Under the pieces are notes generated by a model, which ran no database searches, had not been told where the DNA came from, and worked only from the letters and a program-made list of their open reading frames with translations. Below, piece after piece: positions 1,922 through 63,582 of a stretch of 64,000 bases of DNA. A program made the translations under genes and the position numbers. How positions within the stretch are numbered: the first letter of the stretch is position 1; each line of letters opens with the position of its first letter. Origin of the DNA: Dehalococcoidia bacterium (lineage in GTDB: Bacteria; Chloroflexota; Dehalococcoidia; Lucifugimonadales; UBA3495); assembly GCA_965220105.1 (NCBI GenBank), contig OZ244811.1:1895086-1959085 (forward strand), read 5' to 3'.

Positions 1922-1944
1922 ATCTGACAAGAGGCCAATGCATC

Positions 1945-19259: not shown

Positions 19260-20772
<1,513 letters not shown>

Positions 20773-20864
20773 TGTGAACCTTACTCATTTCCTTCCACTA
20801 TTCAGCTGTTAAGGTGCCGACGCTCACCGGAGGTACTCGCCCTCTACGGCGGCTATGTTCGGCA

Positions 20865-20934: not shown

Positions 20935-20985
20935 CGCCGGGTCTGGAGCGTCGCCGGGTCTGGGGCGTCGCTGGGTCTGGGGCAC
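20935..20985. repeat. Tandem repeat, 3 x 17 bp (CGCCGGGTCTGGRGCGT)
   Basis: Units at 20935-20951, 20952-20968 and 20969-20985, the third degenerate. They lie between the divergent 16S and ssrA promoter candidates. Confidence 0.85.
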
Positions 20986-21062
20986 GGCTCAGGCCATCGG
21001 GGTGCGAACCCCGCCGCAACGCCCGGCCCGCCGCGCCGCCTGGTCCGGCACAGCGGGGAATA

Positions 21063-35889: not shown

Positions 35890-36990
35890 AGGCTTCTTGT
35901 AGCCAGACGAGCGCGGCGCGTTCTTCTGGTTCCGCTTTTGGCCATGAAGAGCGGAAGGTTGGCCATAGCTGCGGTCATCTAACCGCCCCAACTGGGCTTC
36001 AATCTCCTGGTTGCACTCGGCAATCTTGCTCTGGTAGAACCGGTTCAGTTCCGGGGCCCGGGTCAGCTCGAAGATGTGATCGTCGTGCCGGTGCCCCCGC
36101 AGAGACTTGGCGGCGGTCTTCTCGACGGTCTTGATACCAGGTTGCGCAGGCGAGCCACCTTCCGCAGGTTCGGTTCACCAGCCACGATGGCCTCTATGAT
36201 ATCCATGCCTTCCTTGCCGGTGATGTCGCTGATCACGCACTGCAACTTCGCGTTGATCTGGGTCAGCGCCTTGTGCATATTGCTGGACGTGGTGGGAGGC
36301 GTATCCCGCCAGCGTGACCCGTTGCCGCAGGTAGCTGCGCAGACGCCGAATGTTTCCGTCCAGACGGAAAGATTCGGAGAGCAGGCCGTAAGTGTGCAAC
36401 TACTGCAGCCACTGGCATTCCAAAAAGTCGGTCTCGCGCCCCGGCACGTTCTTGATGCGCCGTGGGACCATAGCGTCACTTGAAAGTCCCGGTCTTCCAG
36501 GATCCCGGAGGGGTATCCGGTAGACCCCGGTGGACCCCATGACCACGGTCTCCACTCCGCATTCAGCAAGCCAGGCGGCACAGGTCAACGGCGTGGGCGG
36601 CAAACTCTTTGACCGGCGGCTCCATTCGGTGAGGACGCGGCGGGCGCTCGGCAAAGCGAGCGCGGCGATTCCCGAGAACAGTTCCGGTCGAACCGTTGGG
36701 ACTCTGCGACCAGCCAGTTGGGTTCTCTCCCCAACGGCACATGCGAGGAAGTGGACCGCGGCAGCTCCCTCGTTGGGCATCTGGTTTGACCGTTGGGCCT
36801 CGAGGCCGTTGAATCGCAACGGATTTGCGAGTTGCTACCGGCGAGCCAATGCGCTCGTAGGCATCGGCGTGATTCTTCGCCCAAGCGGGAATAACCTGCA
36901 CGTCCCAGCCTGGGTTGACGGGGGCGTTGGATGCGTGGCACGCGGTGGTTTCTCAACCACTGGGCCACAAAAACACGATTGAATTGCGTC
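35890..36990 (-). mobile_element. IS110-family transposase remnant (multiple frames, 3-prime truncated)
   Basis: Pieces are spread over three frames: AWAKNHAD, CGVETVVMGSTGVY, KNVPGRETDFLECQWLQ, HKALTQINAKLQCVISDITGKEGMDII, FYQSKIAECNQEIEAQL. Confidence 0.7.
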
Positions 36991-37185
36991 AATTAATTGG
37001 TTCAATGAGCCGTTGAGCGATTATCAATTTAATGAACGTCAAATCAGTCAAATTACTCCATCACGTCGGCTGTTTTGACATAGGCAGAATTTTCGCCGTC
37101 AATCAAGTCAATTGGATCACATTCTGGGATCCACAGGGGGCTATACACAGAAAGACGCGCAAACAGCGTGGGAATCTGGGTCAAC
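36988..37185 (-). repeat. AT-rich segment with six (A/T)TTGAC direct repeats, two as 10-bp-phased pairs
   Basis: Plus-strand GTCAA(T/A/C) at 36988, 37038, 37047, 37098, 37107 and 37180. Directly upstream of the IS110 transposase N-terminus. Confidence 0.6.
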
Positions 37186-37544
37186 AAATTTCGCGCGCTT
37201 ATGGCCAGTGATCTCAGAACGATGGTGGGTTGTTCAGGTAAGGCGGCAGCGATTTTGATGATCCGTTCCGTTTCCCCTAAGTCCGAATCCACCGAAGGGA
37301 TGAGGCGGTGTTGGCCAGATGAGGGGTGATCGGCCAGGGAAAGGATGGCGAGGCTGTGATGCTGATAGGAGCAGACGATGCAGATTGCGGGTGCCACGCC
37401 AGCGGGATGTTGGCGGCCTGTGGTGGCGGGGTTGGAGCGATCATCATCGCAAATCGCCGGTGCAGACCGTCAGGAGCACAGCCTGGGCGCTCATCGGCCA
37501 AGTATGTGGCGTCATGGTGGACAGGTCAAACGCCGAGGGCTGCG

Positions 37545-38725
37545 TCAGAAAGGAAGTGGCAGGGCGCGCAATCTGGCCAGGGCGGAGCTGAACAGGTTGT
37601 GTTAGGGCCAGCCTTGAGGCAGATGCAGGGTGAGGCGGCGGGCCTTGTGGGTGAGGCGTCCGGCCAGGGAGAAGAAGGGTCGCCGGAGGGTCTCGGTGTC
37701 GCTACCGGTTCACCCAAGCCGAGGCGCTTGGTCCAGCGAACCAGGTTGTCGGCGATGGCTGGACGGCCAGCCAGGGGGCGTTGGCGGGAAAGCGACCCGA
37801 GGGCAGGTCGTTGAGGCCTACGCCGTACTTCAGGTCAGGGATGGTGTTCTCGATCTCCGCGTGGCGACGATGGTCGGCCCCCAGATCCACCATCTAACCC
37901 TCTCGGTCAGTGATGCAGGCGTGATAGCTGTAGTTGGCAAACAGGGCCCGTTGGGAGGCGGGGGTGGGCTTCACTCTTCGCACGATGAGCCGTACCGATG
38001 CAGCGCCGGGCTCACCGCCAAATGGTGTGTATTCAGTCTAGGCTACGTCGGCGGTGCCCTCCATCCAGTAGGGTTTGGGCGTCCAGTCCGTCTCGGGTAT
38101 GGCCTCGATCAAGTTGCGCACACTTTGGCGCTGGCGTACGGTGACGGAGAGGCGGACCTTCATCTTCCGGCAGACGGCGACGATACCGTGGGTGTAGAAG
38201 CCGTTGTCGGCCCGTACGGTGAGCGGTCCGGTGGCTCCGGCGTCGCGTACTCGGCTGATGGTCTCCCATAGGAAATTGGGCGGCGGCCCGCGCCGCGTTG
38301 GCTCGGCCCTGGCGAAGCCTGCCATCAGCACGTCGCCGGTGCCAGCGGCGATGGCCAACAGCGGATGATAGCCTCGCTGTCCGGCGTAGTTGTGGCGCTG
38401 TGCACCTTCCTTGGCCAGCCCGTAGGTCTCGCAGACGGTGGAGTCCAGGTCGATGGTCGGCGGATCATCGCCCGGTCCGGCCCCAGCCGCTCGGGCCCGA
38501 GCCAGCAACTCAAGGCTCACCCGATCCACCTGTCTCACATGGCCCCACCGGAAACTCCACAGGAAGCTACCCAGTGTGGACGCGCCTTGACCGCGCAGCC
38601 CAGGACCTGCCCCGTACCGCCAGCGCGCAGCGCGTCGGCATCATCAATGCGGTCCCCACCGGCCAGCGCCGACGCCACCAACGTCAGCAACTTGTCCCCC
38701 GCATTGGCCCGACCCGACGCATATC
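37545..38725 (-). mobile_element. IS1380-family transposase remnant
   Basis: Pieces GDKLLTLVASALAGGDRIDDADALR, TIDLDSTVCETYG, RADNGFY, AEIENTIPDLKYG and LAGRLTHKARRLTLHLPQGWP, with frameshifts and stops between them. Confidence 0.7.
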
Positions 38726-38972
38726 CCAGGTCAACATGGCGGCCCACCAACTCCCGGTGCAGCACCAAGCAGTTTACCAACCCCTCGGCCATCCTGTGGT
38801 CGATGTAGTTCGTGTACGTGTCCTGCTTCGACGGCCGCCGCCGCAGTTTCGGACGCATCGCCTCTGCCGACTTCAGGCACCGACGCACCGTGTTGCGCGA
38901 TATGTCCAGCTCCCGGGCTATGTCTCAGATCGAACGTCCCGCGCCTGTCATCTCGTAGATCTCGTCCATCAT
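38725..38972 (-). mobile_element. Second IS21-family IstA N-terminal fragment with in-frame TGA
   Basis: Reads MMDEIYEMTGAGRSI-TGA-DIARELDISRNTVRR...RPSKQDTY...LHRELVG and runs in frame into IS1380-like sequence. The stop is at 38925-38927. Confidence 0.6.
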
Positions 38973-39097
38973 TCCCAGCGTTAGCAAGGTCTCTGCGGCA
39001 CCTCCGCGAAAAGTCCGCAGATGATGCCACCACCGCGCGGTGGGTCAGTTCCACTTTGCTACTTTTGTTGCTGGTCTACGATTCGGTCAGTAGCTAA

Positions 39098-40697
39098 CTG
39101 GTCAGGGAAAATATCAGTCCCATGAAGGACCTGACATTGAACCAGCTAGAACAGACGAGACTCCACGTGCTCAACTCAGTATTGGAACACCAGCTACCGG
39201 TAGCCAGGCCGCCGAGGTCCTGGGGGTGAGTGAGCGCCATGCCTGGCGACTTCTGGCGGCCTATCGGAGGGAAGGCGCCGCCGCACTTGCTCACGGGAAC
39301 CGGGGCCGTAAGCCACGCAACACCGTGGCCGACGACGAGGCCAACGCGGTGGTGCAGCTGGCTAGCACCACCTATGCTGGAGCCATCAACACCCACCTCA
39401 CCGAGTTGCTCAAGGAACGAGAGGGCATCGACATGAGCCGGCCCACGGTGCGGCGCATTCTGACCAGGGCGGGGATCTCCAGTCCGCGCCACCGGCGTCC
39501 GCCCAAGCATCGGGTGCGAAGGCAACGGATGCCCCAGGCTGGGATGATGGTGCAGATCGACGGCAGTTTCCACCGGTGGCTGGGCGATGACGGTCCCCAA
39601 TTCACCCTGCTGCTGGCGGTGGACGACGCCACCAGCGCCGTGGTCAACGCGGTGTTTAGTCCCGAGGAGGACACCCGGGGCTACTTCATCCTGATGCAGG
39701 ACCTGATCGAACGCTGGGGCCGGCCCATCGCCCGGTACGGCGACCGCCACGGCGTGTTCAAGTTCTCGGGCCGGCCCAGGCATATCCAGCCGCCGGTGGA
39801 GGCCACTCACTTCAGCAAGGCCATGGCGGAACTGGGCATCCAACAGATCTTCGCCCGCTCTCCTCAGGCCAAGGGCCGGGTGGAACGCGCCGCGGAAACC
39901 TTCCAGGACCGGCTGGTGACTGAACTGCGTCTCGCCGGAGCCAGGACCATAGACCACGCTAACGCCGTGCTGCGGGATTTCCTGCCCCGGTACAACGCCC
40001 AGTTTGCTGTCCCTGCCGAACTGGCCGAGCCGGCCTACCGTCCGTGGCACAGAAATCTGCCCTTGGATGAAATCCTCTGCATCAAGCACACCCGCAAGGT
40101 GGCCAGGGACAACACGGTCAAGTACAACTGGCGCACCCTGCAGCTGCTGCCTGGCGAGGAGCGTCCCAGCTACGCCGGTGTGCAGGTGGAGGTCCTCGAA
40201 CACACCGACGGCCGCCTCCAGGTGCGCCACGAAGGCGAGATCATCCCCAGCCGGCCCGCGCCGCCCCGACCCGGCGCCCTGCGCGCTTCCCATGGCGCCC
40301 TGGCCCCCACGCCGGAAATCGGCCGCATCGTGAAACGCCTGGGCAACCACCGCATCAGTCAGACACAACTGCGGAACCTGGCCAACCTGGAGCCCGATCC
40401 CGTCGTCGAGGAACCGGCGGTCGACAACAATCACAGTGAACCCCCCAACTCGCCGGGAACTCGCGCCGCGACAGCTGGCCCTCTGGAAGGCCGTGCAGCA
40501 GGCCCAAGCCCAGGGCCTTTCCCTGCGCGCGATCTCGCGCCAACTGGGCGTGCACCGCAACACCGTCCGCAAGTACGCCTGCTCCCCAACCCAGCCGACC
40601 AATCGACCCATCAACCGTGGCGCCAGCCGATCACATCAACCAACCACCAACCGCTCAGACTGACATTTTCCCTTTACATTTAAACTGACAGAGTCGC
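39098..40697 (+). mobile_element. ISNCY/IS481-like element (rve-type integrase-core transposase), two frameshifts
   Basis: Main ORF 39226-40683 (HGNRGRKP..., DGSFHRW, DDATS, YGDRHGVF, SPQAKGRVER). The N-terminus is in another frame from the ATG at 39122 and a C-terminal HTH is in a third frame (40436-40663). The shifts sit at C-runs 39204 and 40441-40446. Terminal IR core is AGGGAAAAT(A/G)TCAGTC. Confidence 0.7.
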
Positions 40698-40713
40698 TGG
40701 ACAACGACACTAG

Positions 40714-41919
40714 GACCGTTTCAATCTGATCTTGTCGGATAGATATGTTGGAGCTTACGGCGAGCATCTTGGGTGGTAAACCGCCAGTCGATGGCTAATC
40801 TTGCTGCGTTGCGCTCGCGTTCGAGCGCCGCAACCTCTCGCCGCAGCTCCGCCTCATCGCTGATACGGCGGTTCAGACATCCCCTGCTGAAGACGCTCAA
40901 CTCGATCTCAGCCATGTTCAGCCAGCTGCCGTGGGTGGGGGTGTAATGAAACTCGAGGCGTTGGGCGATGCGCCGAGCTTCGGATGGCTCAAATGCTTCG
41001 TAGAGCGCGCCGAGCTTGTGGGTGTTGAGGTTGTCCAGTACCAGCCTGACCACCTCGGCATCAGGGTAGGCCTCGTCCACCAGCCACCGCATCTGGTGCG
41101 CGAAGTCCACGGCAGTGCGGCGCTCGGTCACCTCCACAGGTCTCCAGCCACCCCTCGGCTCACAGATCATGAACAGGTTCCGGGTCCCGTTACGCTGGTA
41201 CTCGGTGTCATAGCGTGCCACCCGTCCCGGGGCAGCCTCCAGGGGCGGACGCACCTCCCCGGTCAATTGCCGGGAGGTCTCGTCGAAACACACTACCGGA
41301 CGCTCCGGGTTGTACGCCGGTTGGTACAGGTCCAGCACGTCCTCCATCCGCGCCACGAACTCCCCGCTCACCTTGGGGATACACCACTCTTGCTTCTTCC
41401 ACGGCTTGAGTTCATTTTTTTGAGTAGCTGGCGCACCGTCTCCAGGGAGATGCTATCGGCAAACTCCAACTCCACCACCTGGTCGGCCAACAACTGGAGT
41501 GTCCAGTGCGTGTGCCCTTCGGGCGCGGCGCTGCACGCGAAGGCGATCAGGTGCGCTTCCTGCTTGCCGTCCAGCTTGCGCTCCTGGCCCGGCCGCGGTC
41601 GGTCATTGATGGCGGCCTCAAGTCCTTCCTCCACGTACCGCTTCCGCGCTCTGGCGACCGTGGCCGCGTTGACCAACAGCACATCGGCTAGCTCACGGTC
41701 CCGAAGCCCCTGGTCAGCCTTGAGCAGCGACAGCGCCCGCTTCACGGTGCGCACTGACGCCTTGCCTCGCTGGGACACCTCATTGAGACGGGAGCGTTCG
41801 GCCTCGGTCAGCTCTACTTTATACTTGATGGCAGCCATGGCTGGGCACTTCCTCACACAAAGCTCATGCCCAAGTATGGCTGCCTTCTCATATTCTTACA
41901 AATCTATCTAGTAACGGTA
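40714..41919 (-). mobile_element. IS630-family element, copy 1
   Basis: OrfA 41368-41856 (HTH) and OrfB 40721-41371 (DDE) are joined at an A7 slippery run (41415-41421). Ends are (G/T)ACCGTTTC...GTAACGGTA, flanked by CTAG. Confidence 0.9.
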
Positions 41920-41923
41920 CTAG

Positions 41924-43129
41924 TACCGTTTCAATCTGATCTTGTCGGATAGATATGTTGGAGCTTACGGCGAGCATCTTGGGTGGTAAACCGCCAGTCG
42001 ATGGCTAATCTTGCTGCGTTGCGCTCGCGTTCGAGCGCCGCAACCTCTCGCCGCAGCTCCGCCTCATCGCTGATACGGCGGTTCAGACATCCCCTGCTGA
42101 AGACGCTCAACTCGATCTCAGCCATATTCAGCCAGCTGCCGTGGGTGGGAGTGCAATGAAACTCGAGGCGTTGGGCGATGCGCCGAGCTTCGGATGGCTC
42201 AAATGCTTCGTAGAGCGCGCCGAGCTGGTGGGTGTTGAGGTTGTCCAGTACCAGCCTGACCACCTCGGCATCAGGGTAGGCCTCGTCCACCAGCCACCGC
42301 ATCTGGTGCGCGAAGTCCACGGCAGTGCGGCGCTCGGTCACCTCCACAGGTCTCCAGCCACCCCTCGGCTCACAGATCATGAACAGGTTCCGGGTCCCGT
42401 TACGCTGGTACTCGGTGTCATAGCGTGCCACCCGTCCCGGGGCAGCCTCCAGGGGCGGACGCACCTCTCCAGTCAATTGCCGGGAGGTCTCGTCGAAACA
42501 CACTACCGGACGCTCCGGATTGCACTCCGGTTGGTACAGGTCCAGCACGTCCTCCATCCGCGCCACGAACTCCCCGCTCACCTTGGGGATACACCACTCT
42601 TGCTTCTTCCAGGGCTTGAGTTCGTTTTTTTGAGCATCTGGCGCACCGTCTCCAGGGAGATGCTATCGGCAAACTCCAACTCCACCACCTGGTCGGCCAA
42701 CAACTGGAGTGTCCAGTGCGTGTGCCCTTCGGGCGCGGCGCTGCACGCAATGGCGATCAGGTGCGCTTCCTGCTTGCCGTCCAGCTTGCGCTCCTGGCCC
42801 GGCCGCGGTCGGTCATTGCTGGCGGCCTCAAGTCCTTCCTCCACGTACCGCTTCCGCGCTCTGGCGACCGTGGCCGCGTTGACCAACAGCACATCGGCTA
42901 GCTCACGGTCCCCAAGCCCCTGGTCAGCCTTGAGCAGCGACAGCGCACGCTTCACGGTGCGCACTGACGCCTTGCCTCGCTGGGACACCTCATTGAGACG
43001 GGAGCGTTCGGCCTCGGTCAGCTCTACTTTATACTTGATGGCAGCCCTGGCTGGGCATTTCCTCACACAAAGCTCATGCCCAAGTATGGCTGCTTTCTTA
43101 TATTCTTACAAATCTACCTAGTAACGGTA
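41924..43129 (-). mobile_element. IS630-family element, copy 2 (tandem, slightly diverged)
   Basis: Same 1206-bp architecture, 4 bp (CTAG) after copy 1. There are at least 11 amino-acid substitutions. The OrfA ATG is changed to AGG (MAAIKY becomes RAAIKY). Confidence 0.9.
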
Positions 43130-43260
43130 CTAGTAGACCAACTTCTTTGTTATGACGGGTGAAATGCAGGGTTACTCGGCGAATTTCTGCGTAGGCCCAG
43201 TAGGTCAGGGCAGAGCCCCAGTACCAATCAACTCATCATTACAAAGATTTCAGACTACTA

Positions 43261-52686: not shown

Positions 52687-52810
52687 AAAAAGCCCCTCTC
52701 CCGCCGGGAGAGGGGTTTGGGGTGAGTGGCGAGGGCCCCTAAGCAGCGATCAGATCTTTCGCTATGGCGTCGGTCATGATGCCGTTGTGGGAGTCCAGGT
52801 GGGCAACCAC
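52687..52810. repeat. 124-bp direct repeat, copy A (hairpin terminator plus a copy of the last 23 codons of the 53669-54133 gene)
   Basis: Identical to 53617-53740 except at 52726 and 52792. The offset is exactly 930 bp. Confidence 0.95.
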
Positions 52811-52869
52811 CTCAACGACCAACTTAAGGCCGAGGCTTTCGGCGCGGTGGGCGCTGTCCTCTGGGACAG

Positions 52870-53559
52870 CTATGTACCGTCATCGCCGTTGAATTGAGTG
52901 ATTCGCTTGGGGTTTTTGGGCGACAGTGAGTAACGTGATTCCAGGCTGTCTAGCTCTTCCAACACCTTGACTAAGCGCCGACGGGTCTCTGGTTGGCATT
53001 GAATCAGGGCGTGAATCAGTTCTTGGACCTTACCGTCCGCGCCAGACTGTGTTCTGCGGATTTGTTGCTGACGCGGAATATTGCTTATGCCCACTTGATC
53101 GAAGACTATCGTATTCCAAGCGTAGGCCCATTTCGGTTTCAGTTCATCATTCGGGGAAGGGACCAAGGCTTTGAGTTCGTCCTCGTTGCGGACCGGGACT
53201 TGTACTACTTCCACGTCACGATTTTGCAACTGTTCCAGCTTTGCCATTTTCTTCGACGTGGGCGGAGACGTTACTACGACCTCGATGACCCGCACTGGCC
53301 GCAAGTCTTTATCCAGCAACGCCAAATCGGGTATGCAACCACCGATGGGTTGCATCGAATCGGGAATCACCACACGGTCAACGCCCTCTTTCAGGTTGCC
53401 TGATATACTGCCGTCGATCTTTTTAACGGCTACTGCATCATTGTTGTGCAAGGCATCCCATAGCAAGCCCACAGCGTATTCGTGGAGGAATGACACAGGA
53501 AATGCCGGACTACCGACGTTCCTATCCCATTCGGCTCCGGGCAGCATCGGATCCGACAT
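52870..53559 (-). CDS. Putative PD-(D/E)xK-fold (CoiA/restriction-endonuclease-like) protein
   Basis: 229 aa from the ATG at 53559 (GAGGTAAAGG RBS). Reads FLHEYAV...IPDLALLD...VRVIEVVVTSPPT...K. Lower GC. The fold assignment is an inference from motif spacing. Confidence 0.55.
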   Translation of the reverse strand: MSDPMLPGAEWDRNVGSPAFPVSFLHEYAVGLLWDALHNNDAVAVKKIDGSISGNLKEGVDRVVIPDSMQPIGGCIPDLALLDKDLRPVRVIEVVVTSPPTSKKMAKLEQLQNRDVEVVQVPVRNEDELKALVPSPNDELKPKWAYAWNTIVFDQVGISNIPRQQQIRRTQSGADGKVQELIHALIQCQPETRRRLVKVLEELDSLESRYSLSPKNPKRITQFNGDDGT

Positions 53560-53615
53560 GACCTTTACCTCGTGTAGTAAGTGTAACGAACCGTCCCTGG
53601 GCGAGGGCAAGCCTA

Positions 53616-53645
53616 TAAAAAGCCCCTCTCCCGCCGGGAGAGGGG
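53616..53645 (-). terminator. Intrinsic terminator of the 53669-54133 gene
   Basis: Perfect 10-bp stem CCCCTCTCCC/GGGAGAGGGG followed on the minus strand by CTTTTT. A duplicate lies at 52686-52715. Confidence 0.6.
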
Positions 53646-53740
53646 TTTGGGGTGAGGGGCGAGGGCCCCTAAGCAGCGATCAGATCTTTCGCTATGGCGT
53701 CGGTCATGATGCCGTTGTGGGCGTCCAGGTGGGCAACCAC
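53617..53740. repeat. 124-bp direct repeat, copy B (authentic 3-prime end and terminator of the 53669-54133 gene)
   Basis: See copy A. Confidence 0.95.
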
Positions 53741-54133
53741 GTCGGCGGTGGCGGCGGCCAGCAGCTCAGCGTCCAGGCCGGCGGCAGCGTCGGTGTAGCC
53801 AGCCTCGGCCAGCAGGGCGGCGGATTGCTCGCGAACCTGCTCCAGCGACCAGGCGACCTGCGCCTCGCTCTCGGTGACGTCCTCGGGGAAGTCCACGTGG
53901 GAGCCGCCGGCGCCCAGCTTATCGTAGCCGCCCTTGTGCCAGTGGCCGCGCGCGCCGTGGGGGTCAAAGCGAATGATTTCCACGCCCTGAACGTCCACGC
54001 CGAAAGTGGGGCCGCCGAACTTGGCCCGCAGGCAGCGCAGGGGCCAGCAGTACAGGGTAACGTCGCCAGTCTTGCTCAGCGGGCGGATCATCACCTTGCC
54101 CAAGTAGGACTCGCCATCAATCATAGTTGCCAT
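53669..54133 (-). CDS. Hypothetical protein (154 aa)
   Basis: GGAGGA RBS 8 nt upstream of the ATG. No motif recognised. Divergent from argD. Confidence 0.6.
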   Translation of the reverse strand: MATMIDGESYLGKVMIRPLSKTGDVTLYCWPLRCLRAKFGGPTFGVDVQGVEIIRFDPHGARGHWHKGGYDKLGAGGSHVDFPEDVTESEAQVAWSLEQVREQSAALLAEAGYTDAAAGLDAELLAAATADVVAHLDAHNGIMTDAIAKDLIAA

Positions 54134-54317
54134 GTTTAAAATTCCTCCAGATGGTCATCGTTGGGATGAGATTTGCTGGAGCGCATGCTATCACAAACGC
54201 CAACAACACTGCTCCCCTTGAAACGGACCCGATTGGGGTGAGGGCAGAGGCTTCCCGCTTGACGTATAATAGCCGGCGCGCCCAGGCGCACAACACACTG
54301 AAGGGAGCAGATGTCCA

Positions 54318-55508
54318 ATGCCCAGCAACGCTGAATACATCGCCATCGAGCAGAAATACTACGCCCAAACCGTCCGGCGACGCCCGGTCGTCATCGTGCG
54401 TGGCGAAGGCTCCCGAGTGTGGGACGCCGACGGCAAGGAATACATTGACTTCGTGGCCGGCTGGGCCGTGGACAACCTGGGTCACTGCCCGCCCGTGGTG
54501 GTGGAAGCCATCACCCGGCAGGCCGCCACCCTCATGCAGACCTCCAACCAGTTCTACACCCTTCCCCAGCTCGACATCGCCGAGATGCTGATCGAAAATT
54601 CCTGCATGGACCGGGTGTTCTTCTGCAACAGCGGCGCCGAGGCCGTGGAGGGCGCGCTCAAGATCGCCCGCCGCTACGGCAAGCTCCACAAGAACGGAGC
54701 CTATGGAGTCATCACGGCGCTGAACTCCTTCCACGGGCGCACCATGAACGCGGTGGCCGCCACCGGCCAGCCCCACTACCACGAGCTGTTCGAGCCCATC
54801 CCGGAGGGTTTCACCTACGTGGACTTCAACGACGTTGAGGCCGTGATGAACGCCACCACCGAAAACACGGTGGCCGTCATGATCGAGCCGGTGCAGGGAG
54901 AGGGCGGCGTCAACATCCCCGACGACGACTACTTCCAACGGCTGCGCGCCTGGTGCGACCAGAACAACATCCTGCTGATTCTGGATGAGGTTCAGACCGG
55001 CATGGGCCGTCTGGGCAGCCTGTTCGGGTACCAGGAGTACAACGTGGAGCCCGACGTGATGATCCTGGCCAAGGGGCTGGGCTTCGGCGTGCCCATCGGC
55101 GCGTTTCTAGCCAAGGAGGACGCGATGGCGCTGACCTACGGCGACCACGGCAGCACCTTTGGCGGCAACCCCCTGACCACCGCCGCGGCAGCAGCCGGCA
55201 CCCGCTACCTGCTGGACAACGACATCCTGGCACACGTCAAGGAAATGGAAGTGGCGCTGAAGGACCGCCTCAACGGCCTGAAGTCCAAGTACGGTTTCGT
55301 CAACGAGATCCGTTGCAAGGGCCTGCTAGCCGCGGTTGCCTTCGACAGCGACATCATGCCCCAGGTCATGGACGCCGCCGAAGCCGCCGGCGTGCTGCTC
55401 AACGGCGTGCGCCCCAACGCAGTACGCATCATGCCGGCCCTCAACATCACCGAGGCCGAAATCGACGAAGGCGTGGGCCGCCTGGACACGGCGTTGGGGA
55501 GCGTGTAG
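54318..55508 (+). CDS. argD: Acetylornithine aminotransferase
   Basis: Class III aminotransferase motifs: FCNSGAEA, LILDEVQTGMGR, LAKGLG, TFGGNPL. Confidence 0.9.
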   Translation: MPSNAEYIAIEQKYYAQTVRRRPVVIVRGEGSRVWDADGKEYIDFVAGWAVDNLGHCPPVVVEAITRQAATLMQTSNQFYTLPQLDIAEMLIENSCMDRVFFCNSGAEAVEGALKIARRYGKLHKNGAYGVITALNSFHGRTMNAVAATGQPHYHELFEPIPEGFTYVDFNDVEAVMNATTENTVAVMIEPVQGEGGVNIPDDDYFQRLRAWCDQNNILLILDEVQTGMGRLGSLFGYQEYNVEPDVMILAKGLGFGVPIGAFLAKEDAMALTYGDHGSTFGGNPLTTAAAAAGTRYLLDNDILAHVKEMEVALKDRLNGLKSKYGFVNEIRCKGLLAAVAFDSDIMPQVMDAAEAAGVLLNGVRPNAVRIMPALNITEAEIDEGVGRLDTALGSV

Positions 55509-55550
55509 GGGGTTCGGCCTCACCCCTGGAAACTACCGGTAGGCAGAAGG

Positions 55551-55588
55551 GACTCCCCTCACCCCCGGCCCCTCTCCCGGAGGGAGAG
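55551..55588. repeat. REP-like hairpin element (inverted orientation), abutted by an IS end
   Basis: GACTCCCCTCACCCCCGGCCCCTCTCCCGGAGGGAGAG, immediately followed by the IS inverted repeat. Confidence 0.6.
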
Positions 55589-56969
55589 CTAACAAGGGTA
55601 TGTATTGGCTGAAATTGGTTGGGTGAGGAGCTTGGAAGGCGCAGGGGGTATCCGGCATCTTGGTTGTGACGAAACCGGATGCCGGAGGTCTCCCCTGCGC
55701 CTTCCCAAGGAAGCCTACCAAATGCAGCAGATGATTGGCACGCATTTGCCGCACCTCGCTCCGCCACAGTTGACCGGCCTGGTTCTGTGGGTGTGCGGCG
55801 CTATCCTGGCCGGGAGCGCCTGCCAGAACGCCGTCGCGTCCGCCCTCTCGCCCTGGGGCAGCTGGAACAGCCGGCGCCAGTATCTCCGGGAGTGAGTATC
55901 TCCGGGAGTGGTTGTACGACGGCAGCGACCGGGCGCGTCCCTGCCAGACCGAGCTGGACGTAAGTCTCTGCTTCGCGCCGCTGCTCCGGTGGGTGCTGGC
56001 CTGGTGGCGCTCCGGTCGGCTGGCGCTGGCGATTGACCCCACGCTGAAGGGAGACCAAACCACCGCCATCGTCGTCAGCGTAGTCTGTCGTCAGCGTGGT
56101 CTACCGGAGTTGCGCCGTCCCCGTGGCCTGGCGCATCGTGCGCGCCAACCAGCCCGGGGCCTGGATGGACCCGATAGTGGAACTGCTGAAAGCCCTGGCC
56201 CCGGCGGTGCCCAAAGAAATGAACGTGATCGTCCTGTGCGACCGAGGCTTGGCCAGCCCGAAGTTGTGGCGACAGATCATGGCTCAGGGCTGGCATCCCC
56301 ACATGAGGTATCCCAAAAGCATCACCTTCTGCGCCGAGGGCGGCCGCCGGCTCCCCGCGCGCGCCTTCGTTTCCCGTCCGGATACCGCTCCCGTCCGGAT
56401 ACCGCGTGGATCGGCAGAGGCGCCGCCTTTGGCGCCGCCGCCGCAAACGCCGTTGCACCCTGCTGGCGGTCTGGTACGCCGAGCAGCAGGAACCATGGAT
56501 CATCCTCACCGACCTTCCGCCGGAAGCAGTCGGGGTGAGTTGGTACGCGCTGCGCTGCTGGATCGAACTGGGCTTCAAGGCGCTCAAGAGCCTGGGCTGG
56601 CAATGGGACAAGACCCGCCGGACCGACCCGGCGCGCGTCTCGCGGCATTGGCTCGTGTTGTCGGTGGCAACGCTGCTGGCCCTGGCCTATGGCGCCCGGG
56701 TGGAGGACGCCAACGCCCGGAGGATTGCGCCTGGCAATCTGCGCACACCGCTCAATGCCCTGGCTCCTACGCACCTTAACCCTCGGCGTCGGCCGGGCCG
56801 GACCGTCAGCGTCATCCGCCACGGCATTGACTGGCTGTGGCGGTTGCTGCTCCGGGGCCGGCTCTGGCGCCGCGTCTGGCTGCAGCCCGAACCCTGGCCG
56901 GAACCCAAGCCCAACCTGGAGATTACCCGCCATGCCCCTTCGTGATAATCCCATACATACCCTTGTCAG
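55589..56969 (+). mobile_element. IS4-family-like element with its transposase broken by three 16/17-bp tandem duplications
   Basis: IRs CTAACAAGGGTATGTAT (55589) and ATACATACCCTTGTCAG (56969). Transposase pieces lie in ORFs 55605-55895, 55912-56538, 56096-56779 and 56406-56945 (DRGLASPKLW, WYALRCWIELGFKALKS). Confidence 0.8.
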
Positions 56970-57025
56970 CCCCGGTAGGGGTAGGGGTAGGCGAGGCCAA
57001 TTTTGAGTATAAAATCAGGGTAATT

Positions 57026-57483
57026 TGCACGGGGTAGCGTCATCATTTGCACTGGGTAGCGTCATCATTCTCGAGCCAACATACTCTGATGTTCTGAACC
57101 GGATCCCTTCCCTGTGGGCATTGAAAACCTTGCTATACCGGTCTGCAACGTCTCCGAGGTGGCCTTATTGACCATCTTTTAAGAGTGTCGCGGTGGTATC
57201 TGCTATGCCCGATGTTCAAAATAGCCGGGTCAGGCCACATTTTGCACGAGGTAGCGTCATTGTCCAAATCCGTGACTATCTAGTATGTGCACGGGGTAAC
57301 GTCATGTACTCGGCCGCTATCCTATCGTCATTTGCACGGGGTAGCGTCATAATTTGAGCACGGATAGATCAATATACAGAATGAAGTAGATCGCCAACTA
57401 CACCGATTGCGTTTCATTATCTGCACGGGGTAGTGTCATTATCTGGAATTCGCTGTCCGTTCATCCGCACGGGCTGGCGTCAA
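57026..57483 (+). repeat. Iteron-like direct repeats (core TGCACGGGGTAGCGTCAT), six good copies plus one degenerate
   Basis: Copies at 57026, 57048, 57243, 57288, 57333 and 57422, and a degenerate one at 57466. All are in the same orientation and mostly preceded by CATTT. Confidence 0.85.
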
Positions 57484-58993
57484 TGCTAGGTGGCAGAATC
57501 CTCATGGTGCTTCCACTGCCTTCCACCACACGCAACTCTCCGGAATGTTCCAGTTGGCGGATGACCTTTCGCGCGTCCGACAGGACGTTGCGACGAGCGC
57601 TACGCGCCGAGGTCGGGAAGCACCAGGCAATGATCTCGTCTTCCGCCAACGTCGGATATCGCTCCGGATCATTGACCTGAGTCCAATAGCGTCGCCGTCC
57701 TCTCCCGACCGGAAAATGGGTTCTCCCCGGCTCGAACCAGCGGTAGGCCAGGTTCAGCAACGCCCGATACCCTGCCGCGGACTTGATCCCCCACTGACGC
57801 AGGTCGCCGCTGACCTGGGGGCCGTTTCCAGAGCCGGGCGGCAGGTCAACGATGATGCTGATCAGGTCGTCGAGTTTAGCCGGACCTCGTGGGATGTCGG
57901 AGATGTTGACTATCCGACGTGAGCCGCCCCGACCGGTTTCCGGATCATACCAGGGGATTCGGGCGGCTGGGGATTCCAGCGCCTCGAACGCCGCCATCAG
58001 ACGTGGCCAGTACTCGTTGGGCCGGGGCTTGCGCCGGCTAGGATACAGCCAGTCCAGCATCTGGCGGAGTGTGACCCGCATTGCTACTGGTGTGTGGGCA
58101 TCTCGGGAGTCCATCGGCACCGCCAGCACCGATTCCACAAACAGCCTCAGCGGCAAGGGGGCCGCTGGTCCCCGGCTGGTCGCTGGCGCATCGCCCAAGT
58201 CGTACAGGGCCAGCGGCAGACAAGGCCCGATAGCCGTGGATTCTTTGAATCCGGGGAGGATGAACTGCTGCCGCGCCGCCTCGGACTGCTGAAAACCGGA
58301 GAAGGCCAGCTGGCTTGTTTCGGAGCCTGTTTCCGGCGCGATGTGGGCCACGTGAGCGGCTATCGTGAACAGTTTGCCGGCCTGTCGATCTCCCGGAGCA
58401 ACCTGTGCCAGTTTGGCCGGTATGATACGGCCCGTAGCGCGGGCGTTGGGTGTCACCAGCTGCGGCCGGTTAAGCCAGGCCACGTACAGTATTTCCAAGG
58501 GAAACCCGTCTCTGGGTCTGTCATCAACCGGCAGGCCGTTCCAAAAGGCCAGCAGGTCGGCAATGCGTATCGCGATGGAGAAAGTCTCGTCCGTGGCGCT
58601 CACCGTGCCTGATGAAGAGACCAGTCGGCCAGTGTAGTCCACCACCACGTCGCCGACCGAATTCAGTTTTATCCTCGTTTGCGTCCGCGGCTCCCTCGAC
58701 GGGCGCAGCGTGTCAGCATGGCGTCCATCATCGGTGTCTGGGGCTCCCTCGGTAGCCAAACGCTCGCCAAAGGGCTGGTGGACGGTGCAGATCACGTCCA
58801 CCAAGCCTGATGCCTCCCAGTCTTCGGATTTCGTGATCAACTCCAGGATGCTCCAAGCGGCGGTTCGGATGACGTCGGGAGGACACTCTCCCGACACCAG
58901 CCATTGGGCCAGGGCCCCCACCGTTGTGGTTTCGCCGTCGTTCCGTGTGGCCAGACGGCTCAAGATGGCGTCGCCGGAATCAGATGTCGTCAT
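57461..58993 (-). CDS. Putative replication initiator-like protein (510 aa)
   Basis: The ATG at 58993 overlaps the stop of the upstream ATPase gene (ATGACGACATCTGA). There is no recognisable catalytic motif. The call is by context (iterons, RepA-like neighbour). Confidence 0.45.
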   Translation of the reverse strand: MTTSDSGDAILSRLATRNDGETTTVGALAQWLVSGECPPDVIRTAAWSILELITKSEDWEASGLVDVICTVHQPFGERLATEGAPDTDDGRHADTLRPSREPRTQTRIKLNSVGDVVVDYTGRLVSSSGTVSATDETFSIAIRIADLLAFWNGLPVDDRPRDGFPLEILYVAWLNRPQLVTPNARATGRIIPAKLAQVAPGDRQAGKLFTIAAHVAHIAPETGSETSQLAFSGFQQSEAARQQFILPGFKESTAIGPCLPLALYDLGDAPATSRGPAAPLPLRLFVESVLAVPMDSRDAHTPVAMRVTLRQMLDWLYPSRRKPRPNEYWPRLMAAFEALESPAARIPWYDPETGRGGSRRIVNISDIPRGPAKLDDLISIIVDLPPGSGNGPQVSGDLRQWGIKSAAGYRALLNLAYRWFEPGRTHFPVGRGRRRYWTQVNDPERYPTLAEDEIIAWCFPTSARSARRNVLSDARKVIRQLEHSGELRVVEGSGSTMRILPPSIDASPCG

Positions 58994-59682
58994 AGTTCGC
59001 TCTGTGATTGCCGTTGGTCGCCACTGGGGCGGCATCAGGGGCTTCTCCAGCCGCGGCCTCCCAAGTGCTGGATACTGCCCAACGGGGACCTGAGGGGTCC
59101 CAATCCAGGCATAGCTCGGGGGGTTCGGGGCCATAGTTGGATTTGACCATCGCCAGCTGCCAATGGGTAGGCTCCTGACGGCTGTTTCTGGATGCAGATT
59201 GTAACGGTTCCTTGCTGATTTCCCAACGAGCTCGGGCCGCAGAATGCCAATCCGTGGATCCCAAGTATCCCGCGGCGGATTTGGGCGGATGGCCAATGAT
59301 TAGAACGGTGCAATCGGCGGCAGTAGCCCAGGCGTCCCACGACGCCATGAAATCCCTCACCTGCCCTCGGTCGTTCTCGCTCGCCCCATAGACGGCGGCC
59401 AGTGAATCCAGTACCAGCAGGCCTGCGCTCACGTCTTCCACCACCTGCCGCAATGCCCGCCCCAGCGGTGTCAGCGAAGGAACGTCGTAGCGCGTTGCCG
59501 CGGTCCACAGCGGGCCGTAACCGGCTAGGTCGAGCATCTTGAGGTTGTCGAGGGAGGACGGTTGGCGCCACGGAGCCGGTCCGCCGCTGATCTGCGACAA
59601 TCGCCGGGCCATTTCATCGGCGCGGTCCTCCCAAGTGGCATATACCACGGCCGTTCCTCCATCAGGAACCGCTTTGCCCAGC
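58980..59682 (-). pseudogene. RecA-fold AAA_25/RepA-like ATPase, N-terminally truncated by IS insertion
   Basis: Walker B and downstream region are present (LLVLDSLAAVYG...NDRGQVRDF, TVLIIGHPPKS, GSTDWHSAARARW). No Walker A. Upstream sequence from 59683 belongs to an IS. Confidence 0.65.
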
Positions 59683-61118
59683 CTATTATTACAGTCGCGC
59701 ATATGGTGAAGGTCTCTGAAGGCGTCTTCGGTAATGACACTGCATGGCCCGAGCCTGATGCCGCCGTCTCCACCACGACCATCCAATGGTCAGGGCAGGA
59801 CTGCCGCGAGGTAGCCACCGCAGCCGGCATAGTAGCCGTCTGACCTCGGGCACGGTCAGTGGGATGAGCTCTCCCGGGAGCATTGCCCCCCTTTGCCAGC
59901 GCCACCATCGGCGTAGGACCGGGTCACTTCAAGGAAGGCATGGACCAGTAACGCCAGGGTGATGTGACGGTACCACCCGACCCACCGCCGCACCGGGTAT
60001 TCGTCCAACCCCACCTCCTGTTTGGCCGCTTTGAAGGCATCTTCGATGATCCACCGGGCGCCAGCCACGCGCACCAGTTCCGCCAGCGGCGCCTCCCCTA
60101 CACCAAAACAGGCGTAGTAGGCCAGGTCCTCAGGATCGGTGATGCTGCGACGCACCAATCGCCAATGCCCCTGAGCCGGCTCTGACCAAGGCCGTAGCGA
60201 CACTCGGCTCCAATCGTAGCGGCGTGGCCCTTTGCAACCGTCCCCAGCGCTCAGACGTTGCCACTGGTCATCGGGTATCTGCTCGGCCAACCGCCGCGCC
60301 GCCACCGGCGCGGCGCCACGCTCCGTGTCGGTCCACAACGGCTCATTACTCTTCACCGCCAGCACGTATGACCGCCAGCACGTATGACCGCCAGCACGTA
60401 TGACCGCCAGCACGTATGACCGCCAGCACGTATGACCGCCAGCACGTATGACCGCCAGCACGTATGACCGCCAGCACGTAGGGTAGGCCCTGCTCCTCCA
60501 GCCATCGGCGCAGTCGGCGGTCATTGCCGTACACCGTATCCCCAGTTACCCAGGCAAAAGGCACACCAGCACCCGTGGCTCGTTCAATCACCCCCTGGGC
60601 CAATTGTGCTTTGGTATTGTGCTTTGCTACGGAAGGCTACCGCTTCCGCCACCCCGGCTTCCCGCCGTCGCTCCCAGTCCTCCGCCCATTCCTGGGGCAG
60701 GTAAAGCTCCCGATCCAGCAAGGCTGAGCCATAACGACTGCCATAGGCCAGGAACCCCCCGATCTGACAGTTCTCTATCTTCCCCGCCGTGCCGCTGTAC
60801 TGCCGCTTTACCCCTACCGACTTTTGGCCTTGCTTGAGGAACCCCGTCTCATCCACTACCAGCACCCCTCCCGGATCGCCCAGATGCTCCACCGACCCCA
60901 GCAATCCTTTCAGGTACGCCAGAACCCGCTGGCGAGACTCACTGCGGCTAAAACGAGGCGCGATACGCGCGTGCAGCGCCGGGAGCCCAGCTTCCCAGTC
61001 CAGCACTTCCCTCAGCACCGCCTCCCCTTCCACCAACGTCTGACTCAGATCCAACCCCTCCCCTCTCACCAGTAGTCATGAGTCTATCCTATCAAACTAA
61101 GCGCGACTGTAATATTAG
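59683..61118 (-). mobile_element. IS701-family-like element with its transposase broken by a 16-bp repeat expansion and frameshifts
   Basis: IR ATTACAGTCGCGC (59686) and GCGCGACTGTAAT (61101). Pieces: [61 protein letters not shown]. Confidence 0.75.
60355..60480. repeat. Tandem array, about 7.9 copies of the 16-bp unit ACCGCCAGCACGTATG
   Basis: Unit starts at 60355, 60371, 60387, 60403, 60419, 60435, 60451 and 60467 (last partial). It lies inside the IS701-like transposase reading frame. Confidence 0.95.
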
Positions 61119-62577
61119 CTAGGCTTTACGCAATTCAAGCGGCGTAGGCAAGGGAATCTACAAGTCGGTGGTACAGTGCGACCGGGAGTTCCTGAATGTC
61201 GGGGTCAGCGACCGACAGTGAGAAACCTTCCGACGCCAGCCACAGGTGGCGACGCGCCAGGGCGATGGCATCCACGAAGGTCGGCGACGGTTTGTCGTAC
61301 CAAGCGGCCTTGCGCTGGGTCATGGGGCGCCGTTTCTGCAACGCGTGGGCGGCCAGGGTGGTCCAGGAGAAGAGTCCCAGTAGGGCGGGCGTGGTGCGGG
61401 CGATGGCGAGATCGGACCACTGGCGTTGTGTCTCCACACCCAGATGGGTTCGTACCTCGTGGAAGGTGACCTCCAGTTGCCAGCGCAGTACAAACCATTC
61501 CAGGATCTGGGTCGGGTCCGCCGCCGGGTCGGTACAGAGCAGGGCCTGAGTGGCGAAGGAGCCCTGGGGGTCTCGGATCAGCACCCAGCGAATGAGGACG
61601 GGGGGCTTGCCGGAGCGGTACCAGACCGCCGTCTGGGAGGTGAGTTCCACGGCGCGGGTGATGCCGTCGTACCAGGCCACCTCGGCGCTGGCCCAAGTTA
61701 CATCCGTCTGCGCAAGGAAAACTTTCAGCGGCGGCCGCCGCGGGCCCTTCAATGGCGGGCGACCGTTCTGGCCAGGTTGACGGGGTGGCGCTGGCGCATA
61801 CAGGGCGGCGTCCAGACGCAATCTGGCGATCAGGGTAACGGGTTCACGGAGGGACTGGCAGCAGTGGAGCAAATCCAGCACGGCATAGCTGTTGTCGCCC
61901 ACCAGCGCCAGGGGTCGGTGGGGCAGCCAGCGGCGCAGTTGCATGACCATCTGGCGGGCCCAGTCGGTGAGCTTCTTGTGCTGGCGTCCCTGCTGTTGGT
62001 AGTAACGGGTCGAAGGCGCCAGCACCGTGAGCGCCGGCAAGGCCCAATGGCGTCCGGCCCATGGCACGTGGCCCAGCCACATCAGGGAGATCCAGCGCAA
62101 ACCGCTGGCCTTGACCACCTGAGACCGGCTGGAACGCACCGGGTCGCGGTAGATGGCCCGCGCCCTGATCTTGGCGCCGCGACGCCGTTCCAGGGTCTCG
62201 TCGATGCCGAAGATCAGTGGGCCGTCGCCACCATCCAGGTGCTGGAGCAACAGCGCCAGCAGGATGCGCGCTGCCTGGCGGGACGACCACACCGCCCGAT
62301 TGAGCACCTCGTGGTAGCGGGCGTAGTCGCGCTGGTCGCTGCGGCCCATGACGCGCAGTGCCGCCGCCACGGTGCGTTGGCCCGGGGTCAGGATCGCGCC
62401 GACCAGCAGCAGTTGGGCTTTCCGCCAGGTTGGGCTCGTAAACAGCGTTGCGAAGGGAACGAGAACGGCTACAATGGCATCGGGCAGGGTGAGCATGGCT
62501 GGGCCTTTCCGTTGAAAGTGGGGTCAGGCCAGCTTACCCTGTCTTTATACTTTTTCTAAATTATGCGTAAAGCCTAG
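61119..62577 (-). mobile_element. IS4/IS701-superfamily element with intact 453-aa transposase (61135-62496)
   Basis: IRs CTAGGCTTTACGCA and TGCGTAAAGCCTAG. The 5-bp direct repeat ATTAG flanks it (61114-61118 and 62578-62582). It is inserted at the edge of the neighbouring IS. Confidence 0.85.
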
Positions 62578-63165: not shown

Positions 63166-63238
63166 ATGGATACCATTCCATTCCATTGCGAATGTATTCC
63201 ATAGGAATGGTATGGATATCATTAGTATGGATACCATT
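63166..63238. repeat. AT-rich repeat cluster (ATGGATA(C/T)CATT x3 plus inverted ATACCATTCC/GGAATGGTAT)
   Basis: Copies at 63166, 63212 and 63227, with the palindromic TGCAAT..ATTGCA just upstream. GC is clearly below the surroundings. Confidence 0.7.
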
Positions 63239-63582
63239 GGGCTGATCGCCCCTGGAACTGCCGCGTCCGGAGGTGGGGTCACGAGAGCGATTTGGCCCTT
63301 CCTGGTACGGGACCTGTGGTCGGATCGTGGACGGCATCGGGTTTCCGGCCCCGGGGAGGGCTGTAAAATAGTCTTCAAACGGCCGCTTGCGCACGGATGT
63401 TCGCCGCGCGATAATTGTCTTTATCGCGCAGCTTTCAGCCCTAGAAATCACCACGAAATCGCCCCTCCGGAGACCGCCCTGGCCACCGCTGCCAACAACC
63501 CTGGGAATGACCGCCGCCGGCGTCCCGCCCGGCCGGAGATGACCCCCTGCCGCCGGTGAGACGACACCGCATCGGCAAGGAG

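Follow-up and report, generated by a model that had tools for sequence, protein, structure and literature searches.

Five short tandem duplications disrupt the transposase genes of two unrelated insertion sequence (IS) relics in the genome of an uncultured soil bacterium of the class Dehalococcoidia. The relics, one of the IS4 family and one of the IS701 family, lie about 4 kb apart in a single mobile-element-rich region adjoining argD, within a 64-kb stretch of DNA that is called the window here and whose first letter is position 1 of all coordinates. The duplicated units measure 16, 16 and 17 bp in the first relic and 13 and 16 bp in the second, and these five primary events predate the divergence of the assemblies that bear the relics (four for the IS4-family relic, three for the IS701-family relic). 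The duplications are heritable mutational scars in dead relics and not a regulatory device. As a whole, the pattern is a genuine and statistically unusual form of gene decay, which was probably left by an episodic, length-limited duplication process.

Repeats were detected over the whole window with Tandem Repeats Finder (TRF) and with an exact-period scan. In and around the first transposase gene, the features are as follows.

55589..56969, plus strand: IS4-family insertion sequence relic, with the transposase start codon (ATG) at 55722 and the stop at about 56945.
55879..55910, plus strand: duplication 1, AGTATCTCCGGGAGTG (16 bp) in 2.0 copies, perfect, no flanking microhomology.
56071..56102, plus strand: duplication 2, GTCGTCAGCGT(A/G)GTCT (16 bp) in 2.0 copies, one mismatch (GTA/GTG), no flanking microhomology.
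56372..56405, plus strand: duplication 3, TCCCGTCCGGATACCGC (17 bp) in 2.0 copies, perfect, no flanking microhomology.
56444..56445, plus strand: 1-bp deletion (GCCGC^AAACG), the fourth frame break of the IS4-like gene.

The restored protein of this relic matches Pfam DDE_Tnp_1 (PF01609; E = 7e-11, above the curated cut-off) and shows 78-89% identity to hundreds of 400-aa transposases, the closest intact protein standing at 89%. The IS4 signature, Y-x2-R-x3-E-x6-K, is located after the third catalytic residue; it is present as YALRCWIELGFKALK in the restored sequence and is conserved in the relatives, which are abundant in Dehalococcoidia metagenome-assembled genomes. The relic ends in 17-bp terminal inverted repeats, CTAACAAGGGTATGTAT and CTGACAAGGGTATGTAT. 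Elements of the IS4 family make target-site duplications of about 9-13 bp. Most copies of the related elements are flanked by an 11-bp target-site duplication, and the absence of a matching 11-bp duplication from the flanks of the relic suggests that one side has been rearranged.

When the coding region was aligned at the DNA level with 8 intact relatives (80-86% nucleotide identity), duplications 1 to 3 proved to be insertions relative to all intact relatives, that is, insertions into a gene that had been intact. Its length differs from that of the 8 intact copies solely by the three duplications and the 1-bp deletion, with a summed change of +16+16+17-1 = +48. Duplication 1 yields an in-frame TGA at its junction. 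Removal of one unit each from the first two duplications restores ...RRQYLREWLYDG... and ...AIVVSVVYRSCAVPVAW..., as in the intact relatives and as an original prediction, made from the DNA letters alone, had proposed. That prediction had also located duplication 1 (confirmed by TRF and the exact-period scan) and duplication 2 with its single A/G difference (confirmed by TRF). The 17-bp duplication it described is real and perfect, but had been placed at 56382-56415, which is 10 bp too high. The further frame break suspected beyond it is the 1-bp deletion between 56444 and 56445, which is found neither in L081, one of the related assemblies described below, nor in any intact relative.

The second gene, on the opposite strand, carries two duplications and a later deletion.

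59685..61117, minus strand: IS701-family insertion sequence relic, with inverted repeats TA(T/A)TATTACAGTCGCGC.
60355..60480, minus strand: 16-bp array, ACCGCCAGCACGTATG in 7.9 copies, perfect, inside ...GLPYVLAVKSNEPLW...
60604..60629, minus strand: 13-bp tandem duplication with one mismatch (ATTGTGCTTTGGT / ATTGTGCTTTGCT), the second frame break of the IS701-like gene.
60886..60893, minus strand: site at which the window alone has lost 129 bp in frame, between two GCTCCACC repeats (8 bp).

This relic sits within an AAA_25 ATPase gene (Pfam match), which it truncates, and its right end abuts a later IS insertion. Target-site duplications of the IS701 family are short, about 4 bp. The array of about 7.9 copies had been predicted correctly and was recovered by both methods with a 16-bp unit and no mismatch; the 13-bp duplication and the 129-bp deletion had been overlooked. 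For the restoration, seven array units and one 13-bp unit were removed and the 129 bp lost from the window were put back. The resulting protein matches Pfam DDE_5 (PF13546) with E = 3e-39, without gaps over model positions 71-230, and aligns gaplessly with five intact 398-aa relatives at 83% identity. Some of these relatives are named 'SRSO17 transposase' by the Joint Genome Institute (JGI). Across one repaired site the protein reads PYVLAVKSNEPLW, and dropping one 13-bp unit at 60604-60629 restores a junction that matches the relatives. The ancestral unit of the array is ACCGCCAGCACGTAGG, of which the window has amplified a G-to-T variant. The 129-bp loss is an ordinary microhomology deletion. 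The claim that frame-breaking duplications occur in two unrelated transposase genes is thus borne out, the two genes belonging to different Pfam families (DDE_Tnp_1 and DDE_5).

Inheritance of the duplications is documented by three assemblies of the European Nucleotide Archive, L079, L080 and L081, which encode the exact ArgD protein of the window and are 98-99% identical to it over the aligned blocks that lie from about 44 kb to 64 kb in the window. All three IS4-like duplications are found in the window and in each of these assemblies (4/4). Duplication 1 has 2 copies in the window, L079 and L080 and 3 copies in L081, and duplication 2 is perfect (GTG/GTG) in L079 and L080 and reads GTA/GTG in the window and L081. 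The IS701-family relic is found in L079 and L080 besides the window, and the 13-bp duplication is common to all three. The copy number of the array is 3.0 in L079, about 4.6 in L080 (with an irregular unit) and 7.9 in the window; the 3.0 copies of L079 are perfect ancestral units, which shows that the array arose by exact repetition of the ancestral 16 bp. Because the assemblies differ from one another by single-nucleotide polymorphisms (SNPs) and repeat copy number and carry the same duplications, these are inherited mutations. The 16-bp array could serve as a strain marker.

An artefact of long-read metagenome assembly or polishing in repeated IS sequence is very unlikely as the source of the duplications; of all the explanations considered here, we give this one the least credence. 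It is true that the contig names suggest long-read assemblers, that polishing can fail in IS repeats, and that two scans of JGI metagenome contigs brought no independent confirmation: neither the junction of duplication 3 nor a gapped pattern accepting the duplicated or the unduplicated site of duplication 1 had a match there. However, identical duplications occur in four assemblies that are 1-2% apart in the island and whose contig names follow two styles, which points to two different assemblers. In addition, one duplication has diverged by substitution in 2/4 assemblies, and the relics are single-copy in the lineage, with no near-identical paralogues to mislead polishing. Block shuffles of 1.7 Mb yielded zero perfect duplications at periods of at least 12, so that the confirmed repeats of the window are no chance matches. 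Frameshifted transposase genes in long-read metagenome assemblies are therefore not necessarily sequencing errors.

The variation in copy number (2 or 3 at 55879; 3, about 4.6 or 7.9 at 60355), together with unit lengths that are not multiples of 3, so that every step shifts the frame, is what reversible, phase-variable silencing of transposase expression would produce. This explanation is nevertheless highly improbable, as the frame of each gene is broken independently at several places, so that changing the copy number of one repeat does not restore the open reading frame (ORF): the IS4-like gene combines three duplications with a 1-bp deletion, and the IS701-like gene combines the array, the 13-bp duplication and, in the window, the 129-bp deletion. 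No assembly carries an open gene for either transposase (four assemblies for the IS4-like gene, three for the IS701-like gene). Units of 16-17 bp in 2 copies are also unlike known contingency loci. Ruling against a switch function removes the most attractive, unsupported interpretation of these repeats.

Two further ideas about expression were discarded. The net sums that are in frame (+48 for the IS4-like gene of the window, +45 for the IS701-like gene of L079) were judged to be due to chance, and the intervening segments contain stop codons. Ribosome hopping over the repeats was considered since the TGA directly follows duplication 1, and was rejected because the other duplications have no such TGA and several bypasses in series would be required.

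The lesions of the common ancestor belong to a single class. Once the duplications are taken out, the two genes align collinearly with their intact relatives, and the leftover defects (-1, -2 and -129 bp) are found in only some of the assemblies, which means that the ancestral lesions were the five tandem duplications only. What came later is ordinary, namely 1-bp and 2-bp deletions, the 129-bp deletion and changes in copy number. Four of the five primary events comprise exactly 2.0 or 3.0 copies and the fifth has an overlap of 1 nt, so that microhomology at their junctions amounts to 0-1 nt; duplications of at least 13 bp in related genomes have equally clean junctions. The ten duplication boundaries share no motif, showing merely a weak pyrimidine/purine tendency, and the five ancestral sites, folded as single-stranded DNA, have no hairpin potential (z-scores from -0.7 to +2.0). 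Replication slippage is not supported as the origin of the duplications because there is neither flanking microhomology nor hairpin potential, and it accounts for the later copy-number changes. Among the three mechanisms that had originally been offered, a length-constrained duplication process thus fits best, with its clean junctions and single lesion class, whereas an origin by slippage and phase variation are not supported.

Size and location also set the five events apart. Perfect duplications with a unit of at least 9 bp are confined, in the 64 kb, to the two transposase genes, and the exact-period scan found none in the remaining 61 kb. A background survey of 1.64 Mb surrounding 78 related IS copies contained perfect duplications of at least 12 bp at about one per 30 kb, most of them multiples of 3 inside long ORFs. 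For units not divisible by 3, the counts fall off smoothly as the unit grows, from 16 at 10 bp and 9 at 11 bp to 5 at 13 bp, 6 at 14 bp, 2 at 16 bp and 0 at 17 bp. Against this size spectrum, the probability that at least 4/5 events fall at 16-17 bp is P = 4e-5 to 1e-3, which upholds the narrow unit-size class first noticed in the sequence, in a test chosen post hoc. The events are also clustered: five are found in 2.64 kb, where about 0.2 are expected even if all background events fall within the 12% of neutral DNA (P = 3e-6).

A sixth duplication, specific to the window, is the newest.

63210..63239, plus strand: window-specific 15-bp tandem duplication, whose new copy has two substitutions.

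The surrounding 200 bp are otherwise identical between assemblies, and the duplication affects the start region of a small unannotated ORF.

Taken together, these features lead us to favour, tentatively and with slightly less than even confidence, the hypothesis that the primary events are scars of a length-limited, microhomology-independent process, most likely one in which a staggered break is filled in and its ends are joined, with slippage acting afterwards. If two nearby nicks on opposite strands, for instance, opened a double-strand break staggered by about 13-17 nt, overhangs would be left; these would be filled in, and the blunt ends would be joined, leaving a tandem duplication. Once identical units were adjacent, ordinary replication slippage could expand or contract the arrays. 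The events may have come as a burst, or while the elements were in an earlier setting, since the surrounding chromosome has no comparable density of scars and the later lesions of the relics are ordinary. Error-prone fill-in would fit the newest event, at 63210, as its new copy carries two substitutions. If this hypothesis is correct, the relics record a process that is otherwise hard to see, the formation of short duplications free of microhomology, in an uncultured lineage; the geometry of the break could be read from the size of the scars, and the process could be searched for in complete genomes of the group.

Several observations weigh against this hypothesis. The size-class test was chosen after the data had been seen and rests on five events. 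No source of staggered breaks of 13-17 nt was found, whether as a motif at the boundaries, as hairpins or as a candidate enzyme. The IS fragments at 36-40.3 kb, an older group with in-frame stop codons, contain at most one or two degenerate duplications, which does not fit a steady genome-wide process, so that the hypothesis requires an episode or an earlier host. Lastly, the SNPs of the IS4-family relic do not look like those of a gene that was dead before its alleles diverged: 25 are non-synonymous where 37 would be expected (P = 2e-4), and for 32/50 both alleles are also found among 12 intact relatives, where a rough estimate, not a computed value, would be about 10-14/50. Such selected or imported-looking SNPs fit poorly with early inactivation. 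They suggest recombination with other copies, which might itself have been the source of the duplications.

This last point is the basis of an alternative in which the duplications arose by template switching during recombination or replication of repeated IS DNA, diverged paralogues serving as templates and error-prone synthesis re-copying a short stretch. Across positions 53619-59213, the four assemblies have 0 SNPs in a 2-kb segment that includes argD and 99 in the adjoining 3.6 kb. The relic itself has 49-50 SNPs in patches of 2-7 within 2-30 bp, which violate the four-gamete test. Patches of this kind, together with the allele sharing and the depletion of non-synonymous changes, suggest either short-patch gene conversion, with diverged paralogues as donors, or polymorphism older than the inactivation. 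The SNP-rich region appears to recombine, or to be exchanged, independently of the chromosome. Template switching would also explain why multi-copy IS DNA was hit and unique non-coding DNA was not. However, re-annealing should leave microhomology at the junctions, where none is seen, and the model does not explain why the length should be fixed at 16-17 bp. The IS701-family relic has few SNPs. In addition, no co-resident intact paralogue was found in these assemblies as a conversion donor; no intact paralogue exceeded 89% identity for the IS4-like gene or 83% for the IS701-like gene, and the nearest, at 89%, are in other assemblies. Overall, we regard template switching as an unlikely origin of the duplications. 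As a separate observation, the SNP-rich 3.6 kb holds the IS4-like relic, an iteron-like repeat region and a 611-aa ORF, and its allele patterns fit no single tree.

Another alternative is that of targeted scars: a nuclease or integrase that prefers mobile DNA would cut it with a constant stagger of about 16-17 nt, and repair would leave duplications of that length. Such scars could stem from host defence, from a rival element, from abortive integration, or from excision footprints in which the target-site duplication is kept. The narrow size class, the clean junctions, the several hits per element and the presence of two unrelated IS about 4 kb apart are consistent with targeting, as are the burst-like timing and the scarcity of events elsewhere in the window; repeated cutting could add units, in agreement with the 3-copy and 8-copy states. 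For 3-bp direct repeats in Candidatus Burkholderia pseudogenes, footprints of insertion and subsequent excision of IS30 have been proposed (PMC6054270). On the other hand, there is no shared motif at or near the ten boundaries, one event measures 13 bp, no candidate enzyme was found, and a search of the literature on 16/17-bp target-site duplications brought up almost only eukaryotic retroelements. The IS families checked make target duplications of 11 bp (IS4-like) and 5 bp (DDE_5 element), not 16-17 bp, and footprints of resident IS were rejected on this ground. Targeted scars of this kind are doubtful, and somewhat less likely than template switching. A little more doubtful still is the full combination of a fixed stagger of about 16-17 nt, a preference for mobile DNA (by a nuclease, an integrase-like enzyme or a guided system) and repair by fill-in and joining. 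If it were true, each strike would leave a frame-breaking duplication and cripple transposase genes, and the process would be a bacterial counterpart of repeat-directed mutagenesis or a scar of conflict between host and mobile elements.

More generally, it had been proposed that such duplications repeatedly inactivate transposases, which is not borne out in the related genomes. There, 89/98 copies of the IS4-like element are intact, and three other broken copies show 2-bp and 8-bp deletions, a 2-bp insertion and hairpin mini-insertions, with no such duplications. The comparison with other IS copies thus confirms that the duplications are insertions with respect to intact relatives, but the broken IS4-like copies elsewhere carry ordinary lesions. 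The 1.64-Mb survey contained 38 in-frame duplications of 12-24 bp, none of them in an IS4-like transposase gene. The enrichment is a feature of the two relics, or of some episode that they went through, and not of transposases generally or of all neutral DNA of the chromosome.

The older fragments at 36000-40300 include a DDE_Tnp_1_4 (IS1380-type) transposase with in-frame stops, an IS21-like N-terminal fragment and others that are IS110-like by eye and have no Pfam match. A 10-bp near-repeat at 36517 was examined as a possible duplication in another relic and rejected, as it is coding sequence for G-S-T-G-V-Y-R.

Members of the IS4-like family have peculiarities of their own. A recurrent 24-bp hairpin-like insertion, for example GCCTGCCCCGTACTGGATACGGGG, is found in intact and broken copies, at several positions and in both orientations, twice at one CAA^GGCG site, and usually in frame. 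It encodes 8 aa, such as SLPPARPG, APVSSTGQ or ACPVLDTG, and resembles a very small mobile palindrome that inserts within genes. Insert sites were noted in L003-L007, L014 and L039 (at about column 1014 of alignment A1), again in L039 (at about column 1215), at L085:2331 and at L088:1416 and 1514-1541; proteins P0008, P0033, P0034 and P0051 have insertions of this type, and L088 also has a 29-bp hairpin insertion. In P0062 and P0085 (alignment A5), 9-bp replacements change QL or RL to SA(K/T/W)GG and (S/G/A)C to PP(Q/E)AD in the IS4-like transposase, and by back-translation the replacement sites would contain GCTG. At L023:5777-6140 and L037:6687-7042, the IS4-like element is reduced to about 112 bp of its left end and about 220 bp of its right end, and these short derivatives look like internal deletions of the type known from miniature inverted-repeat transposable elements (MITEs).

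Clean duplications and perfect arrays were also seen elsewhere in related genomes. At L003:6096-6124, a clean 14-bp tandem duplication cuts the gene of a 729-aa Eco57I-type restriction-modification methylase into two ORFs. At L082:2000-2029, a clean, perfect 15-bp duplication lies at the HTH/DDE_3 ORF junction of an IS630-like element; it is missing from two related IS630-like copies, and the same contig carries the DDE_5 transposase of the window. Long perfect arrays in related Dehalococcoidia include 29 copies of 15 bp (L031:7842-8282), 10 copies of 13 bp (L024:7403-7538), 9 copies of 15 bp (L004:8670-8804) and 5 copies of 18 bp (L058:11887-11976).

The later IS insertion at the end of the dead IS701-like relic is an intact IS701-family element (DDE_5, 453 aa) at 61119-62577, with 14-bp inverted repeats and a 5-bp target duplication, ATTAG. 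Its absence from L079 and L080 indicates a recent insertion, and three low-coverage contigs from another sample (L082-L084) encode an identical DDE_5 transposase. Between the two relics, at 57020-57470, there are at least 6 copies of an iteron-like repeat of about 20 bp (TTTGCACGGGGTAGCGTCAT), two of them in direct tandem. The copies are neighboured by the 611-aa ORF, which has no Pfam or PHROG match, and by the AAA_25 ATPase gene; the whole may represent the replication module of an integrated plasmid-like element.

In other parts of the window, a 930-bp segment between 127-nt direct repeats (52687-53743) is absent from L079-L081, a 1210-bp unit occurs twice in tandem at 40703-43135 (98% identity over 300 nt), and an amidase-like protein is encoded at 1891-3294. 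A complete 16S rRNA gene lies at 19263-20774 on the minus strand, and no 23S rRNA match was found in the 4.8 kb downstream of it. Upstream of this gene lies the last of the predicted repeats.

20935..20983, no strand assigned: 17-bp array in 2.9 copies, 93% matches, 161-209 nt upstream of the 16S rRNA gene.

The array exists as predicted, but it is non-coding and imperfect, and nothing ties it to the IS duplications. A further array of 17-bp units, degenerate (72% matches), is found at 21010-21055, and both lie within 160-280 nt upstream of the 16S rRNA gene.

Several known systems resemble parts of this pattern. Contingency loci undergo phase variation through the copy number of short repeats in long tracts. 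As at such loci and at variable-number tandem repeats, the 16-bp array and duplication 1 vary among close genomes and each step shifts the frame; they differ in that no copy-number state gives a working gene and in that their units are long and mostly present in two copies. Transposon excision footprints may retain the target-site duplication, and, like the present scars, they are clean tandem duplications of fixed length whose copies directly abut. However, the IS found here duplicate 11 or 5 bp, and no prokaryotic element with a 16-17-bp duplication was found in the literature. Repeat-induced point mutation (RIP) in fungi consists of C-to-T transitions and depends on the detection of duplicated sequence. 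The parallel with RIP is conceptual only: in both cases, repeated or mobile DNA is riddled with one characteristic type of inactivating mutation, whereas here the mutations are duplications, the relics are single-copy and targeting is only a candidate explanation.

The decay of pseudogenes in Candidatus Burkholderia offers a bacterial comparison, in which non-functional genes likewise gather frame-breaking indels. In that system, deletions outnumber insertions, sizes follow a power law with few events above 15 nt, and about half of the insertions create direct repeats (PMC6054270). In the relics, by contrast, the five ancestral lesions are without exception insertions of 13-17 bp, and the assemblies have neither a deletion nor a small indel in common.

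The favoured hypothesis of staggered breaks has its closest counterpart in mouse and human cells, where small tandem duplications arise from fill-in and non-homologous end joining of staggered breaks, some of them with additional mutations (PMC8355091). The setting is different, since that system involves eukaryotic cells, Cas9 nickases, Pol alpha-primase, CST and Ku80, and the link to an uncultured bacterium is one of analogy only. The products are nevertheless alike: short head-to-tail duplications whose junctions are independent of microhomology, whose length is set in that system by the distance between two nicks, and whose new copy, in the 'TD+' class, sometimes carries extra substitutions, as does that of the newest event here.

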